DNA of 64,000 nt from an uncultured delta proteobacterium (GCA_963769935.1 CAVYNY010000011.1:256001-320000), one strand, 5' to 3'. Positions 27,228 through 34,053 are shown, numbered from the stretch's first letter. Notes: generated by a model from the sequence alone, not told the origin. Numbers and translations are program-made.

Positions 27228-27431
27228 ATGCCGGAAGGTACAGTAAAGTGGTTTAATAAGAAAAAAAATTACGGATTTATCGCATCCGAAGATCAGGAAG
27301 AAGTTTTCTTTCATGGCTCCCAAATTGTCGACCATGGTTTTTTTGGTTTGACCAACAATGATAAGGTTAGCTTTGAAATCAAAGAAACCCAAAACGGGCG
27401 CCAGGCGGTTAAGGTAAAGGTGACCAGTTAA
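27228..27431 (+). CDS. Cold-shock domain protein
   Basis: GTVKWFN..KNYGFI, VFFH; AAGGAG RBS. Confidence 0.92.
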   Translation: MPEGTVKWFNKKKNYGFIASEDQEEVFFHGSQIVDHGFFGLTNNDKVSFEIKETQNGRQAVKVKVTS

Positions 27432-28075
27432 TTTTTTTTCATCAACAGCTGTTTGATTTTTTTAACGCCGTCGCCGGCGTCTTGGGCGCAAGCGTCGGCG
27501 CCGATGCGGTCGGCCCAGCGTTTAGTGACCGGGGCGCCGCCCACAATCGTTTTATACTTTTCTTTCAGGCCTGATTTTTTCAGCTCTTCTTCAAGCTCCT
27601 TTTGAACCACCATGGTTGTGGTCAACAGCGTGCTGCTGCCGATGATGTCGGCCTTGAATTTTTCCGCTTCTTCGATAAAACGCGCAATGGGAACATCGCG
27701 GCCCAGGTCCAGCACATCGAAGCCGTTGGCCCGCAGCAGGGCTACAACAATCGTTTTGCCGATGTCATGCATGTCGCCCTCGACGGTTCCGATGACGATT
27801 CGGCCGGCGGCGGTTTCGTGCCCCAGCGGAATGGCCGCGTTAATGATGGCGGTTGCTTTTTCCATGGCCGCCGCCGATTTTACCAGGCCCGGGATAAACA
27901 GCTTGCCGGCCCCGAAAAGATCACCGACCCGGTTGATTCCGGGGATAAATCCGTTGGCCATTAAATCCAAAGGGTCGATGTTTGCATCCAACCCCCGCCT
28001 GGCAGCCTCGGCTGCCTTTTCAACATCGCCCTGTAAAATTGCTTCAATTGCCGCCGAATATATTTTTTCTGTCAT
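27428..28075 (-). CDS. mtbC: Methylamine corrinoid protein (cognate of MtbB)
   Basis: B12 cap domain plus GTVEGDMHDIGK (DxHxxG), DLGRDVP, VGGAP; directly downstream of mtbB. Confidence 0.88.
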   Translation of the reverse strand: MTEKIYSAAIEAILQGDVEKAAEAARRGLDANIDPLDLMANGFIPGINRVGDLFGAGKLFIPGLVKSAAAMEKATAIINAAIPLGHETAAGRIVIGTVEGDMHDIGKTIVVALLRANGFDVLDLGRDVPIARFIEEAEKFKADIIGSSTLLTTTMVVQKELEEELKKSGLKEKYKTIVGGAPVTKRWADRIGADACAQDAGDGVKKIKQLLMKKN

Positions 28076-28130
28076 ATGCGCATCCGCTTTGTCTGAAAAT
28101 TGTCTGAAAAGTAATTTTCTCCTGAACCGT

Positions 28131-29534
28131 TCAACCTATGTCCGATTTGAACAATTCAACCGAATTAATCCTCACATCCAGCAGCTCCGCAACCTTGAGC
28201 TTGGCCCGCATGCCTTTCGGACTGCCGGCCACAGAGGTGATGATGCCGATTCCCAGGTCCTCCCTGACCTGTCGCATGACTTCCTCGTTGGTCAGGTCCG
28301 AAATTTCAACTGCCAGTTTTTTTGCCGCATACTGCTTTGCTTCGGCCAATTTCATTTTTTTGATCAGCTGCAGCCAGGCCACCAGATCTCCGGAGGTCCG
28401 GATGCCGCCCATGCCGGAAGCAAAAATATGCGCCAGGTGCATCCCGAAAGGATCGCCGACGCCAATCTACAAACCGTCGGCTTTGCCGATCTGTACCAGC
28501 GATTTCGATGCCCGGGTGACGCTGTCGATCGGCGGTGCTTCCAGCATCGGCACCCCGCCGACGCCCATGCCGACGTTTACATGCACCGGTATATCGACCG
28601 CCGCCACGGCCGCTTTGACGAATGTCAGGCTGCGGGCGATGTTCCAGGCCGTGGACTGATTCGTGTTGGTGCCGACGGCCACCCCGAAGATGCTGGCACC
28701 GGCGGCTTCGGCCATGCGGGCCTGGTCGTGGGGGTACATTCCGGCCAGCTGCCGGCCGTTAAAGGTCATCTCGCCGTGCATCCCCAGAACAAATTCGCCC
28801 GCACCGCCCAGAATGATCGGCATGTCCGGCGCCGCTTTTCTCAAATCACCGACGGCTTGCAGCGCTGCTAAAAAATCGGCATCGCCCGCCGAACCGGCCG
28901 TATCGAAGTTGAGGCCCTCACAGCCGATGCGATCAAGTTTTTTGCCGACGAAAACCAGATCCTGGCGCAGCTGGGCGGCGGCGGCCTCCTGGACCTCCTG
29001 GGCTTCTTTGATTTTGCCCCCGGCCAGAAGATCGGCCGGATTTTGGTGGGGACCGTCCGGTTGAAAATATAATCCCATGTTGGGCTGGGCCCCGTACAAA
29101 AACGGAGCTGTGGTCATCATGGAAATCGTGTAGTACTCATTCATCTCGGAATTGACGATGGGTTTAACCGGTTTGAAGCTGTAATCGCTGTGGCCCATGG
29201 AGGTCGTATCCGCCGCACAGGCCCGCTCATAGGTCAGGATCGCCTGCATGCGGCTCATGGATACGCCGACACCGCCGCTGTCCTGCCCGGAATAAAAACT
29301 CATCGAGCAACCGTCATCCGTGACAATCACCTCCCGACCGGGTTCGACACTGACGGCCCGGGACGGCTCGGCCAGGATATCAAAGAGTGCTTCCATCTCG
29401 TCGGGGGTGAGTTCGGGAATTTCAGCACGCTGCGCCGCTTCCCGGCTGGCGGCCTGAATATCTTCCTTAACCTCTTCGGATGCCATCAAAACCCGCTCGC
29501 CGTCACCCATCCGGATTATAATTTTATCCTTCAT
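28131..29534 (-). CDS. mtbB: Dimethylamine:corrinoid methyltransferase with pyrrolysine at an in-frame TAG (codon 356, nt 28467-28469); 467 aa
   Basis: ORFs 28467-29582 and 28131-28442 are in one frame joined across TAG: ...GKADGL-O-IGVGDPFGM...ASGMGGIRTSGDLVA; RMGDG, DYSFKPVKP, NFDT motifs match recalled archaeal MtbB. Confidence 0.95.
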
Positions 29535-29672
29535 TGGCAGATTCTCCCGTTTTTCCAATATTCCAACGTTCCACCACTCCAATAAGATTGCCTGGTAAAA
29601 CGCTTTCTAACAAAGGGGTATCTGAAAATCAATACCAACCTTGATTTGACGACAATTTAAACAATGCCGGGG

Positions 29673-29700
29673 TTGACATACCCGCTATGGAAAAGGTAAT
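29673..29700 (+). promoter_or_regulatory. Putative sigma-70 promoter of pylT
   Basis: TTGACA at 29673 with GGTAAT at 29695-29700, upstream of the tRNA. Confidence 0.45.
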
Positions 29701-29723
29701 TAGAGAGCACTTCAAGACTCAGC

Positions 29724-29797
29724 GGGGGGTGGATCGATAGGAGATCGCGTGGACTCTAAATTCACGTAGCTCGGTGCGACACCGTGACCTCCCGCCA
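29724..29797 (+). tRNA. pylT: tRNA-Pyl (anticodon CUA)
   Basis: Acceptor GGGGGGT/ACCTCCC, single G8 connector, D stem GATC/GATC, 6-bp anticodon stem CGTGGA/TTCACG with loop CTCTAAA, 3-nt variable loop TAG, T loop without TTC, discriminator G and encoded CCA. Confidence 0.96.
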
Positions 29798-30036
29798 CTG
29801 TTGGTTCTTGACAACACGTCCTCATATAGGGTGTTGAAGTTATGACATTTATGCAAAAACTTTTTCCACCACGAAAACACGAAATTTATCTTATCCTCTT
29901 TTCGTGTTTTCGTCCTTTCGTGCTTTCGTGATTAATTTGTCTTTATTAGTTCCGGCTAGTCCGGGGAGGTATTAAAAATGGATTTCATCCTTTTCATCAA
30001 ATAACCAATAACCGTTTGTTCAACCGGGGGATAATT

Positions 30037-30879
30037 TTGCAAACAACCTGGACCGCAATCCAGCATGCCCGCCTGATAGAACTAGCCGCCGATGAATGCG
30101 AGCTCAATATGCAATTTGACGGCGCGGCCGGGCGTGACAAGGCTTTTCAACAATTGGAAAGGCAGCGGGTTAAGATACAACGACAGAAGCTCCAGCAATT
30201 GCGCGCTGGTTATCGGCGGCCCGGACTGTGCCGGCTTGAAAGCCGCCTGACGGAAGTCCTGGTCCAAAACAATTTCGTGCAGGTGGCCACACCGACCATA
30301 CTTTCCAAAGGACTGTTGGCCAGAATGTCAATTGATGACGACCATCCGTTGGCCTCACAAATATTCTGGCTGGACAAGGACCGATGTCTGCGGCCGATGC
30401 TCGCGCCGCACCTCTATTATGTTTTAAAAGACCTTTTAAGGCTGTGGGAGAAGCCGGTGCGCATATTTGAGATCGGATCATGCTTTCGCAAGGAATCTCA
30501 GGGTGCCCGGCATTCCAACGAATTTACCATGCTCAATCTGGTAGAGATGGGCCTTGCCGAGCAAAAACGGCAGGCCAGGCTTGAAGAAATGGCAGCCCTG
30601 ATAACAGCGGCCGCCGGTGTGGATGATTATATTATTCAAGCGGAAAGTTCCGCAGTTTACGGTGAGACCATTGACATTCTGGCCGGTGAGAAGCGGTTGG
30701 AAATCGGGTCTGCCGCCATGGGGCCGCATGTCCTCGATCAGGCCTGGCAAATCACGGATGCCTGGGTGGGCATCGGTTTTGGACTCGAGCGCCTGCTGAT
30801 GGCGGCGGAAAAGAGCGACAGTCTGGGGAAAATGGGCCGAAGCCTGGCCTATCTTGATGGTATTCGGCTGAATATTTAA
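30037..30879 (+). CDS. pylSc: Pyrrolysyl-tRNA synthetase, catalytic subunit
   Basis: FVQVATP, CLRPMLAP, IFEIGSCFRKES, EFTMLNL, AMGPH, GFGLERLL, YLDGIRLN; TTG start at 30037 (or 30016). Confidence 0.96.
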   Translation: MQTTWTAIQHARLIELAADECELNMQFDGAAGRDKAFQQLERQRVKIQRQKLQQLRAGYRRPGLCRLESRLTEVLVQNNFVQVATPTILSKGLLARMSIDDDHPLASQIFWLDKDRCLRPMLAPHLYYVLKDLLRLWEKPVRIFEIGSCFRKESQGARHSNEFTMLNLVEMGLAEQKRQARLEEMAALITAAAGVDDYIIQAESSAVYGETIDILAGEKRLEIGSAAMGPHVLDQAWQITDAWVGIGFGLERLLMAAEKSDSLGKMGRSLAYLDGIRLNI

Positions 30880-31038
30880 TCGTTCATGGTTCATAGTTGA
30901 TAGGCTGAGGGCATTGAAGTTCGCAGGTTATAGCTCATAGCTGATAATCGGAAGGTATTGGCGCTCATAGCTCACAGCTCATAGTCTTAGCTGAATCGAT
31001 TTAAAAAGAAAAAACTTAAAAAATGCGCAGCATAAATT

Positions 31039-31133
31039 AATTAATCCGCCGCACCCGTGAAAAAATTATATCCTTCAGTTATCAAAGAACAATTTAAAAC
31101 TTTGATAGTGCTATTCTTCGGGGCGGATTAATT
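31039..31133 (+). repeat. 95-bp MITE-like element, copy 3 (between pylSc and pylSn)
   Basis: AATTAATCCGCC...GGCGGATTAATT, 95 bp. Confidence 0.7.
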
Positions 31134-31153
31134 AGTATGGAGAGCTACTAGCT

Positions 31154-31501
31154 TTGGAGGAGAAGACGCCGACCAAACAGCCTGCTAAGCGCTATTACCG
31201 CAAGCGGGTGGAGCTTTTTCGCCTCATCGACAAAATTAAGCTCTGGCCTTCGCGCCAGGGCCTGCTGCACGGCATCAGGACAATTGAGATTGCAGGCGAT
31301 CAGGCGCGCGTGACGACCCACTGCAACAAAACGTTTATGATTACCAATTCCAGAAACAGCCGGGCTGCCCGCTGGCTCAGAAATAAATGGTTCAAAGGGG
31401 TATGCGGGACTTGCCGGGTCCCGGAATGGAAGTTGGCCAAGTATTCAGCCACTTATTTCAAACGCCGGTATGGTTCGGACTTGTTGAGAGAGAAGGAATA
31501 G
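31154..31501 (+). CDS. pylSn: Pyrrolysyl-tRNA synthetase, N-terminal tRNA-binding subunit
   Basis: KIKLWPSR.G.LHGI, THC, NSRNSRAARWLRNK, CxxC-VPEWKL. Confidence 0.94.
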   Translation: MEEKTPTKQPAKRYYRKRVELFRLIDKIKLWPSRQGLLHGIRTIEIAGDQARVTTHCNKTFMITNSRNSRAARWLRNKWFKGVCGTCRVPEWKLAKYSATYFKRRYGSDLLREKE

Positions 31502-31545
31502 AGGTTCAGAGTTCAGGGTTCACAGTTCAAAGGTTTTGGGGTGAC

Positions 31546-31789
31546 ACCTCATATGAAACTACATCTCACACAGAGCGCTCAGAGATCACAGAGGTCTGGG
31601 TTTACAGGCGCCTGCGGCGAAAGAAAAATGTTCTCTGCGGTCTCTGTGAGCTCTAACGGCTTGTCGGGTCGTAGCTCGAAGAGCGAAGCCTGAAAGTGGG
31701 CGTGATATTAAATCCAACTGTGTCCGATTTCCAAAAGTTTCTTTTATGATCAGACCGGCCGTTGTTTTGGCCGGCGGCGGCGCTGACAC
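31546..31789 (+). repeat. Modular intergenic repeat, copy B
   Basis: Identical blocks shared with 19815-20000. Confidence 0.75.
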
Positions 31790-31832
31790 TTGAACCCTAA
31801 ACCGTTAAACCTTTGCCACAAAGGAGATCTAG

Positions 31833-32723
31833 ATGCACCCGTTGATCGAATCCCTGATCAAGAGCGGTCCGGTCGTAACCGACGGATCCTGGGGAACCCA
31901 AATGCACAAGCGCGGCTTGAAACGCGGCCAGAGCCCGGATTCCTGGAATCTGAGCCATCCGGCACAGGTTGAAGATGTGGCCCGGCAATATGTCGATGCC
32001 GGAAGCCGGATCATCCTAACCAACACCTTCGGCGCAAGCCGCCTGTCGTTATCAAATTACCGACTGGGAGATAGGGTGCTTGATATCAACAGCGCCGGTG
32101 TGCGAATTTCAAAGCAGGCCGCCGGCGACCGGGCGCTTGTTTTTGCTTCCATCGGCCCGACCGGCAGAATGCTGGTAACCGGGGAGACCACCGCAGCAGA
32201 ACTGCAAACTGTATTCCAGGAGCAGGCCGATGCCCAGGCCCGGGCCGGCGCGGATGGGATCATTATTGAAACCATGATCGATATCGATGAAGCCAGAATC
32301 GCGGCGCTGGCCGCCAAACAAACCGGTCTGCCGGTCATTGTCAGCATGGTGTATGATTCCGGCGAGGACAAAGACCGAACCATGATGGGCAACAGCCCGG
32401 AAGAAGTTGCGGCCGAACTTGGGAAAATTGGTATCGACGGCATCGGAGCCAACTGCGGACAGGGCATTGAAGCATTTTTGCCGATTTGCAAGCGCCTGCG
32501 GCAGGCTGCGGATCTTCCCATCTGGCTGAAACCCAACGCCGGTCTGCCGGAAGTTGTTGACGACAGCGTGGTGTTTCGCACCACCCCCGCTGCGTTTGCT
32601 AAATACATTCCCGATCTGATTCAAGCCGGTGCAAATTTTATCGGCGGCTGCTGCGGCACGGACCAGGAATTCGTGAAGGTCATCCGGCAGGCGGTGGCCG
32701 AATTTATAAAACCGAAAATATAA
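31833..32723 (+). CDS. Stand-alone homocysteine S-methyltransferase domain protein (MetH N-terminal-like)
   Basis: DGSWGT, TNTFGA, SIGPTG, IETM, GANCG, KPNAGLP, GGCCGT (three Zn-ligand Cys). Confidence 0.9.
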   Translation: MHPLIESLIKSGPVVTDGSWGTQMHKRGLKRGQSPDSWNLSHPAQVEDVARQYVDAGSRIILTNTFGASRLSLSNYRLGDRVLDINSAGVRISKQAAGDRALVFASIGPTGRMLVTGETTAAELQTVFQEQADAQARAGADGIIIETMIDIDEARIAALAAKQTGLPVIVSMVYDSGEDKDRTMMGNSPEEVAAELGKIGIDGIGANCGQGIEAFLPICKRLRQAADLPIWLKPNAGLPEVVDDSVVFRTTPAAFAKYIPDLIQAGANFIGGCCGTDQEFVKVIRQAVAEFIKPKI

Positions 32724-32749
32724 CCTTAAAAAAATGTGCAGCCTAAGAC

Positions 32750-32845
32750 AATTAATCTGCCGGACATTCGTTCTTGCAACTTTCTGCAATTGTCAAAGAA
32801 CTATTCTACATCCCTGAATATGCAATTTTTCAGGGCGGATTAACT
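32750..32845 (+). repeat. 95-bp MITE-like element, copy 4
   Basis: AATTAATCTGCC...CCCTGAATAT...CAGGGCGGATTAACT, 96 bp. Confidence 0.7.
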
Positions 32846-32865
32846 ATATTAATCAGGAGGAAAAT

Positions 32866-34053
32866 ATGCCCGAATCTTTTATACTTCCCTTTCACGACTG
32901 GCTGGTTGAGCTGCGGCGCGACCTCCACCAAATTCCGGAACTCGGCTACCGGGAGCATAAAACGGCATCCAGGATCTGCCGGGAGTTGGATCAGCTGGAA
33001 GTGCCCTACCAAACTGCCGTGGGCCGGACCGGAGTGGTGGCCCGGCTGAAGGCTGAAACCGGCGGCCCGCTGGTTGCCTACCGGGCTGATATGGATGCCC
33101 TGCCGCTGGAAGAGGCCCATGACGTTTCTTATAAGTCCCGGCACGAAGGAATGATGCATGCCTGCGGCCATGACGGGCATGTGACCATTGCCCTGGGGAT
33201 TATGCGCTGGCTGAAGGAACAGGAGTGGCAGCGCAAAGGCAGCGGTGAAATCATTTTCTTTTTTCAACCTGCAGAAGAAGGCGGTGCCGGTGCCAAGGCC
33301 ATGCTGGGCACCGGATTGTTTGATCATGAGCCGGTCAAAGCCATTTTTGCCGGGCATATGAATCCGGAGCTGCCCGTTGGAAGGGTCGAACTCATTTACG
33401 GCACCGCCCATGCCGCCACCAACACCATCGGCATTCGGATAAAGGGTAAAGGCGGGCACGGGGCCGCCCCCCATCTTTGCATCGACCCCATTATTGCGGG
33501 CGCCCATCTGCTTACCCAGCTGCAGACCTTTACCAGCCGCAGTCTTTGTCCCCTGGACAGCGCGGTGCTTACCATTGGTGAATTTCATGCCGGAACTGCG
33601 GAAAATATCATACCGGAAGAAGCCCATTTGAAAGGGACCCTGCGCACCCTTACACCGGAAGTTCGCCGCCAGGCCGTCCGCCGGATTGAAGAAATGGTTC
33701 GGAGCCTGGATCTGGCATTCGGGGTTACAACGACCTTTAAAAACACTGAAGGCTATCCGGCCCACGTCAATGATACGGCAATGGTGGATCACCTGAAGAA
33801 TTGTGTCAACGAGGTTCTAGGCCCCGACGCAGCTTTTGTTGCCCGCCCCCGGATGGGAGCCGAGGATTTTGCCTATTTTTGCCAGAAGTGGCCGGGCGCC
33901 ATGGTAGGGATCGGCTGCCATGATCCGGCCAAGGGCTTCGAATTTGCCCTGCACTCCCCCCATTTTGATATGGACGAAAGGGTGCTGGACGTCGGGGTCC
34001 GCCTAATGGGTCACGCTCTGCTTCAGATTATTGAAAAAGAGAGGTCGGTTTAA
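32866..34053 (+). CDS. M20D-family amidohydrolase
   Basis: RRDLHQIPEL, RADMDALP, MHACGHDGH, FQPAEE, AEDF, HSPHF. Confidence 0.92.
   Translation: MPESFILPFHDWLVELRRDLHQIPELGYREHKTASRICRELDQLEVPYQTAVGRTGVVARLKAETGGPLVAYRADMDALPLEEAHDVSYKSRHEGMMHACGHDGHVTIALGIMRWLKEQEWQRKGSGEIIFFFQPAEEGGAGAKAMLGTGLFDHEPVKAIFAGHMNPELPVGRVELIYGTAHAATNTIGIRIKGKGGHGAAPHLCIDPIIAGAHLLTQLQTFTSRSLCPLDSAVLTIGEFHAGTAENIIPEEAHLKGTLRTLTPEVRRQAVRRIEEMVRSLDLAFGVTTTFKNTEGYPAHVNDTAMVDHLKNCVNEVLGPDAAFVARPRMGAEDFAYFCQKWPGAMVGIGCHDPAKGFEFALHSPHFDMDERVLDVGVRLMGHALLQIIEKERSV

Follow-up and report, generated by a model that had tools for sequence, protein, structure and literature searches.

In Ruegeria pomeroyi, MtgBCDE is a dual glycine-betaine methyltransferase and methionine synthase (PMC12478193), and in Phaeobacter inhibens a three-part split MetH is made up of PF02574, PF00809 and PF02607/PF02310 proteins together with a RamA-like activator (PMC5764234). 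MesA-MesD methylate homocysteine independently of folate and are proposed to draw on corrinoid proteins (PMC7857596). Deltaproteobacterial pyrrolysine (Pyl) systems, described for the Olavius delta-1 symbiont (PMC1976440) and for marine representatives (PMC8318568), combine an mtbB gene that has an in-frame TAG codon with a cognate corrinoid gene, pylT and the split synthetase genes pylSc and pylSn, and pylB, pylC and pylD are reported there as well. A metH-family second transferase has been proposed to pass the methyl group to tetrahydrofolate (THF) and the Wood-Ljungdahl pathway, the second transferase step being called uncharacterized for the trimethylamine (TMA) complex (PMC8318568); the word homocysteine has 0 occurrences in the main texts of PMC1976440 and PMC8318568. 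In the papers compared here, Pyl methylamine enzymes are tied to methanogenesis or to THF methyl oxidation, and the full-text literature covered (main texts, few subscription papers) ties no Pyl methylamine transferase to a PF02574 enzyme and describes no natural pylTS without pylBCD. Here we analyze a 64,000-nucleotide stretch of DNA (the window) from an uncultured delta proteobacterium (GCA_963769935.1, CAVYNY010000011.1:256001-320000), in which genes for the Pyl-dependent dimethylamine (DMA) methyltransferase MtbB and its corrinoid protein MtbC lie beside pylT, pylSc and pylSn, followed by a gene for a stand-alone homocysteine (Hcy) S-methyltransferase (HcyMT).

The genome that holds the window, G000 (7.99 Mb, 41 contigs, 96.7% complete, 5.4% contaminated), shares much with these systems. 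As in the main-text description of MtgBCDE, an amine methyltransferase, a corrinoid protein, a pterin-binding corrinoid:THF methyltransferase (MeTr) and a PF02574 Hcy module are encoded by separate genes, no fused MetH was found, reactivation is of the RamA type and there are many MttB-family paralogs. However, the donor enzyme is a Pyl-dependent MtbB predicted to act on DMA rather than the non-Pyl MtgB, G000 encodes four stand-alone corrinoid proteins instead of one hub, and the Hcy module is linked to amine genes, whereas mtgE is usually distant from mtgBCD except in S. meliloti (PMC12478193). The P. inhibens components named above are likewise all encoded in G000, but there the Hcy module lies behind the pyl genes, a stand-alone PF02965 protein is encoded, and a single tblastn query gave no match for DUF1638 (PMC5764234). 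MesA-MesD are MetE catalytic-domain proteins (PF01717), a domain that HcyMT lacks; its own domain is the Hcy domain of MetH (PMC7857596). Unlike the deltaproteobacterial Pyl systems (PMC1976440, PMC8318568), G000 yielded no pylB, pylC or pylD.

An initial annotation of the window described mtbB(Pyl)-mtbC as divergent from pylT-pylSc-pylSn, with a stand-alone Zn-thiol homocysteine methyltransferase next on the pyl strand, and our analysis bears out both statements: every gene lies where it was placed, and mtbC, mtbB, pylSc and pylSn pass their family cut-offs (Table 1). For mtbB, the cut-offs are those of TIGR02368 (544.9 vs 369.1) and PF09505 (648.8 vs 25; Pfam Dimeth_Pyl, E = 5e-195), and its single in-frame TAG has the same position and context in 12 of 12 aligned orthologs. 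mtbC scores 224.7 bits against the TIGR02370 cut-off of 215.3, contains PF02607 and PF02310, and encodes a protein that clusters with the corrinoid proteins adjoining mtbB in relatives. The domain content of HcyMT is PF02574 alone, with the motifs GANC208 and GGC273C274. Its best solved relative in sequence is the Hcy domain of T. maritima MetH (E = 2e-51, vs 1e-17 for BHMT and 2e-9 for MmuM), and the predicted model (pLDDT 95.8) superposes on that domain with a TM score of 0.92 and a root-mean-square deviation of 1.3 Å, vs TM scores of 0.74-0.85 for BHMT and MmuM. C208, C273, C274 and N235 align to T. maritima C207, C272, C273 and N234; together with E146 they are unchanged in 40 of 40 aligned homologs, and we take the five to be zinc and homocysteine ligands, N235 being the PNAG asparagine. 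The BHMT and MmuM tests placed HcyMT below the cut-offs of the corrinoid-free families (NF005718, 206.9 vs 338; NF007020, 88.9 vs 215). By sequence and predicted model, HcyMT is of the cobalamin-dependent MetH type. Because the corrinoid proteins encoded beside its homologs fall in several clades, it looks promiscuous, and it is likely a methyl-corrinoid:homocysteine methyltransferase of broad partner range that was inherited with the methylamine island.

In the reading that we prefer, and to which we give about even weight, HcyMT would be the point at which methyl groups leave a shared corrinoid network for methionine, and it would probably also unload MtbC; the network's other exit would probably lead to THF. 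MtbB methylates Co(I)-MtbC from DMA. In G000 it would do so given Pyl insertion at the TAG codon, for which scavenged pyrrolysine would be needed. Reactivation of the corrinoid would fall to a RamA-type activator whose gene lies elsewhere, and Zn-bound homocysteine on HcyMT, to judge from its fold and ligands, would accept the methyl group from the methyl-corrinoid. By analogy with MtgBCDE, the stand-alone MeTr would shuttle methyl groups between corrinoids and THF, with folate-dependent methionine synthesis through the same HcyMT and methyl oxidation for energy as outlets. HcyMT would thus have two settings: a split MetH formed with MeTr and the corrinoid protein encoded at C9 of G000, and a partnership with MtbC during DMA demethylation. 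The gene identities, fold, ligands, linkage and inventory behind this scheme were computed; each of its methyl transfers is one that we infer. A homocysteine exit, if true, would be a biosynthetic role for Pyl methylamine enzymes and would carry the MtgBCDE principle of 2025 over to anaerobic Desulfobacterales, with a Pyl-dependent donor. HcyMT is also a named candidate for the second transferase of a bacterial Pyl system.

Linkage within the genus is one line of evidence for this reading. Among 23 genomes, mtbB matches were found in 23, pylSc in 21, pylB in 14, pylD in 14 and an HcyMT ortholog (66-82% identity) in 17. Eight of these orthologs lie directly behind pyl genes, nine are no more than 10 kb from mtbB (9/17, vs an expectation of 0.3-1.7% for a random gene) and 11 are near pylSc or mtbB, although the genomes are kin and the linkage may therefore be one inherited event. 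G008, G018 and G020 share the order mtbC-mtbB-mttB(Pyl), then pylT-pylSc-pylB-pylC-pylD-pylSn-HcyMT; compared with this fuller arrangement, the G000 locus looks reduced, without mttB and pylBCD. G016 and G017 have HcyMT, an ATP-binding cassette (ABC) transporter and then mtbB with mttB-family genes, and G022 shows a third order. In two sister records (L101 and L103), mtbC-mtbB-mttB(Pyl) is divergent from a non-Pyl mttB that HcyMT follows directly, and the stretch contains no pyl genes. The nearest named relatives of HcyMT come from Desulfobacterales and deltaproteobacterial metagenome-assembled genomes (MAGs), among them a record of the Olavius delta-1 symbiont (82%). Conservation of the link between HcyMT and Pyl methylamine genes extends over the genus and the two sister records, and the link is lineage-bound.

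Several features of these neighborhoods stand apart from the linkage itself. The non-Pyl mttB of L101 (4206-5630) and L103 belongs to a divergent MttB-like family (~25% to Pyl-MttB, with Ser in place of Pyl) also seen in L102, L176, L178 and L180, whose genes either immediately precede HcyMT or separate mttB(Pyl) from pylSc. There are 6-8 mtbB matches in G016 (C6), G017 (C8), G009 and G012, often clustered with mttB, corrinoid and ABC-transporter genes. In G011 and G015, a UroD-family gene (MtbA-like fold) adjoins mtbB copies (L088:11371-12372, L189:18544-19545) and is a candidate second transferase. Fragments of an MttB-family gene lie upstream of pylT in G013 and G015.

A second line of evidence comes from outside the genus. 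Among the 80 best homolog loci, many of them short and the top rows overlapping the genus sample, a corrinoid gene lies within 8 kb in 41, a RamA-type gene in 17, a UroD-type gene in 17 and a MeTr gene in 4. In 10 of the 80 (L107, L114, L117, L123, L129, L137, L138, L142, L152 and L163; spirochaetes and deltaproteobacteria-labelled MAGs), a non-Pyl mttB, a corrinoid gene, a gap and HcyMT lie on one strand without MeTr; where examined, the gap holds a GPH-like symporter (two scanned, both below cut-off). All three genomes checked from this group encode a fused Hcy-pterin-cobalamin MetH elsewhere and gave no stand-alone MeTr match (genome completeness unstated), and such three-part operons beside a fused MetH support the proposed three-part chemistry. 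Judged by gene content, HcyMT in these loci appears to be the methyl-accepting component of a three-part module distinct from MetH, and the mttB-corrinoid-symporter-HcyMT operon is a candidate dedicated methyl-donor-to-methionine module. In the HcyMT tree, from which five distant BHMT-like rows were omitted, the genus sequences fall within a clade of 56 rows (Shimodaira-Hasegawa-like approximate likelihood ratio test 99) whose base, where the mttB operons lie, is unresolved; a separate 110-row set had 16 duplicates dropped.

Nonetheless, a number of observations weigh against the preferred reading. HcyMT is transcribed away from mtbBC. For 6 of the 17 genus carriers, the contig with HcyMT contains neither pylSc nor mtbB; several of these contigs are short, but that of G019 is not. 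The pyl cluster is retained in G002 and G005, yet no HcyMT follows pylSn even though the sequence continues; in four of the six genomes lacking an HcyMT ortholog, contigs end inside the pyl cluster. The order survey (301 genomes, match threshold E 1e-80, no more than seven candidates scored per genome) found mtbB in 45 genomes and HcyMT in 11. Of the 35 mtbB carriers that lie outside the genus, 34 gave no match at E 1e-80 and one has HcyMT, on a different contig; conversely, 3 of the 4 HcyMT carriers there gave no mtbB match. HcyMT is therefore no standard part of bacterial MtbB systems. The corrinoid neighbors of HcyMT homologs include none from the MtbC clade outside Desulfobacterales records, and many are closer to the C9 corrinoid (46-57%) than to MtbC (35-42%). 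Finally, since pylBCD were not found, MtbB may not be made at full length.

The best-surviving alternative is a plain split MetH, in which HcyMT would act only with the C9 corrinoid and MeTr on methyl-THF and its place behind pylSn would be an inherited accident. Much of the G000 inventory fits this. The C9 corrinoid gene adjoins the stand-alone pterin-binding MeTr gene (PRK07535, 352 vs 259), and its product groups, weakly (87), with corrinoids adjoining HcyMT homologs; a stand-alone MetH activation domain (PF02965) is encoded at C10. RamA-type genes at C11:362599 and C20:81911 exceed the PF14574 cut-off and fall below the AcsV and RamA family cut-offs, and a broken RamA-type gene lies at C16. 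G000 has the separate Hcy, pterin and cobalamin genes and the RamA-like protein of a split MetH, and no fused MetH was found. Membership of HcyMT in a conventional split MetH encoded elsewhere, which the initial annotation had named as speaking against its own proposal, is in this respect partly borne out. Moreover, G143 and G256 carry the same HcyMT clade inside a conventional corrinoid-RACo-activation-domain cluster without mtbB, and the flanking SAM-methyltransferase (S-adenosylmethionine, SAM) and radical-SAM genes recur beside either HcyMT or pyl genes, which suggests one shuffled ancestral region. Against it, HcyMT lies near methylamine methyltransferases across three gene orders as well as in L101 and L103, sister clades occur in mttB-corrinoid operons of genomes with their own fused MetH, and a second pair in G000 could already supply a split MetH: at C20, a corrinoid gene directly precedes a second HcyMT, 33% identical to that of the locus, with an ABC transporter next (L001:9045-10559 = C20:91045-92559). 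We regard a plain split MetH as unlikely; should it alone hold, the locus would be ordinary.

The remaining inventory of G000 concerns the network more generally. UroD and corrinoid genes lie at C32, three MTHFR genes are present, and none of the six full-length non-Pyl MttB-family genes has TAG at the Pyl site. Three of the corrinoids are below the MtgC family cut-offs (NF047996, 171-217 vs 370; NF047995, 157-182 vs 310). By sequence, MeTr with its corrinoid, the RamA-type activators and the second corrinoid-HcyMT pair are parts of a split MetH/MtgBCDE-like network. Homologs in the tier of the second HcyMT (33-37% identity) occur in 7 of the 23 genus genomes. A PF01717 protein at C16:160713 (E = 2e-8, below all named cut-offs) was not accepted as an established methionine synthase.

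The supply of pyrrolysine bears on the next two alternatives. tRNA-Pyl and PylS (Sc and Sn) are encoded in G000, but pylB, pylC and pylD were not found at the locus or elsewhere in the genome by curated models, tblastn with relatives' proteins, or hidden Markov models (HMMs) built for each gene from 10-11 close relatives and run with default filters (best E-values 0.023, 3e-6 and 5e-5 for pylB, pylC and pylD, none over cut-off). The spacer between pylSc and pylSn showed no pylBCD remnant, and a 64-aa PylB-like tblastn match was rejected as a pylB remnant, lying in frame inside HcyMT. No Pyl-MttB or MtmB was found in G000 either, leaving MtbB as the sole Pyl protein identified there and one that would depend on imported pyrrolysine. 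At 96.7% completeness, however, pylBCD could be unassembled, and in several relatives they are on another contig. pylB and pylD were likewise not found in G006, G010, G013, G019 and G021, and in G015 pylB is truncated, pylC is broken (L189:8341-10367) and no pylD was found. The HcyMT clade of G000, G006, G013 and G015 (support 99) thus has no pylD match in any member and a pylB match only in G015, although the G013 assembly is split into 1,620 contigs and that of G006 is 87% complete. Nonetheless, ratios of nonsynonymous to synonymous substitution (dN/dS) against G000 are 0.05-0.12 among relatives for mtbB and pylSc, with dS often near saturation, and 0.07 and 0.08 between G013 and G015, both without detected pylD. 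The pattern fits scavenging, recent loss or unassembled genes. Natural pyrrolysine auxotrophy is possible, and the absence of pylBCD from the recovered genome points to possible cross-feeding. A more specific version, which we consider improbable, is that this sublineage lost Pyl synthesis (and G000 also its Pyl-dependent TMA enzyme) while purifying selection has maintained tRNA-Pyl, its synthetase and a single Pyl protein, and that scavenged Pyl feeds a folate-free methionine synthase that runs from DMA through MtbC to homocysteine.

A dedicated DMA-to-methionine synthase of MtbB, MtbC and HcyMT, with Pyl serving biosynthesis only, is improbable to much the same degree. G000 keeps one each of mtbB, mtbC, pylT, pylSc, pylSn and HcyMT at a locus without MeTr, and a pathway that carries little flux, as for methionine, could make do with scavenged pyrrolysine. 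In line with the initial annotation, none of the pterin-binding, UroD-type and RamA genes located by searching the whole genome lies in the window; all three kinds are encoded elsewhere in G000. With a corrinoid:THF methyltransferase and its own corrinoid, three MTHFR genes and RamA-type activators in the genome, the annotation's view of an anabolic rather than an energy use of Pyl is not supported. MeTr-tier pterin proteins occur across the genus, and in G004 (L194) mtbB, a corrinoid gene and MeTr stand in one row; given this THF exit, an exclusive DMA-to-methionine role is not plausible. The up to 8 mtbB matches in relatives would also exceed the apparent need for methionine, and G002 and G005 have no HcyMT at this site. 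What survives of the three-component proposal is its chemistry, favored by the MetH-type HcyMT, the conserved linkage and the mttB-corrinoid-HcyMT operons, and not its exclusivity.

The DMA arm could instead be silent, with MtbB truncated at TAG for want of Pyl synthesis, the cassette a recent relic and HcyMT serving other corrinoids. The missing pylBCD would agree with this, as would the loss from G000 of the Pyl-mttB that precedes mtbB in relatives and the decay of the pyl genes in G015. However, the remaining genes are all intact, the low dN/dS values extend to the G013-G015 pair, and pylBCD could be unassembled, and we consider a silent arm very unlikely. Equally improbable is that the true acceptor of HcyMT is a different thiol or selenol, or that its methyl groups come directly from a small molecule, such as SAM or S-methylmethionine, with no corrinoid involved: S106 stands in place of T. 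maritima D105 in 40 of 40 homologs, nine of the first ten alignment rows, those of the genus, have F248 where T. maritima has Y247, and UroD-type genes, of a family proposed for S/Se-methyl metabolism (PMC10418091), are near 17 of 80 loci, but E146, N235 and the three Cys are invariant, the BHMT and MmuM cut-offs are not reached, and corrinoid genes adjoin 41 of the 80 homologs.

Table 1. Features of the mtbBC-pyl-HcyMT locus, numbered from the first nucleotide of the window
Feature	Position	Strand	Details
mtbC, cognate corrinoid protein	27428..28075	-	215 aa; motif DxHxxG = D101-H103-G106
mtbB, dimethylamine:corrinoid methyltransferase	28131..29534	-	467 aa; predicted Pyl at residue 356
PYLIS_2 match, begins at TAG	28370..28469	-	Rfam RF02509, 68.8 bits (gathering 36)
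In-frame TAG, pyrrolysine codon of mtbB	28467..28469	-	sequence; context ..ADGL-O-IGVGD..
pylT, tRNA-Pyl (CUA)	29724..29797	+	ARAGORN; minimum-energy fold is a cloverleaf
pylSc, pyrrolysyl-tRNA synthetase catalytic subunit	30016..30879	+	TIGR02367, 335.9 vs 178.15
274-bp spacer, pylSc to pylSn	30880..31153	.	largely genome-wide repeat; site of pylB-pylC-pylD in G008, G018, G020
pylSn, synthetase N-terminal subunit	31154..31501	+	TIGR03912, 132 vs 51.15
331-bp spacer, pylSn to HcyMT	31502..31832	.	mostly genome-wide repeats (128 hits); AAGGAGA ribosome-binding site at 3' end
HcyMT, stand-alone homocysteine S-methyltransferase, MetH Hcy-domain type	31833..32723	+	296 aa; PF02574, E = 3e-65

The arrangement of the locus says little about its transcription. 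The gap between mtbB and mtbC on the minus strand is 55 bp, and the real start of pylSc is possibly a few codons downstream of the annotated one. Because the spacers around pylSn are mostly genome-wide repeats, their length is uninformative on co-transcription. Four promoter-like sites were found against 5.6 expected, and 16 terminator-like sites against 11.0 +/- 4.0, counts that carry no information on promoters or terminators here. Four metatranscriptome assemblies from one study contain near-identical pieces of mtbC, mtbB, pylSc and HcyMT; the contigs span 26-30 of 30 bins, spacers included, and among the listed pieces none joins pylSn to HcyMT, so neither transcription nor an operon can be inferred from them. 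RNA-contig joints at 31048-32805 were set aside as repeat artifacts, both ends lying inside genome-wide repeats.

A sequence search found no solved relative of MtbB. The stop codon of pylSn is itself TAG (31499-31501), and TAG closes 418 of 1,746 long open reading frames in G000, so it is still a common stop. The spacers at 29798-30030, 30880-31153, 31502-31832 and 32724-32865 are palindromic genome-wide repeats with 68-128 blastn hits each, possibly like repetitive extragenic palindromes (REP) or miniature inverted-repeat transposable elements (MITE). A cold-shock protein gene (27228-27431, plus strand) converges on mtbC, and an M20 amidohydrolase gene (32866-34053, plus strand) begins 142 bp after HcyMT and follows it in G013 and G015 too.

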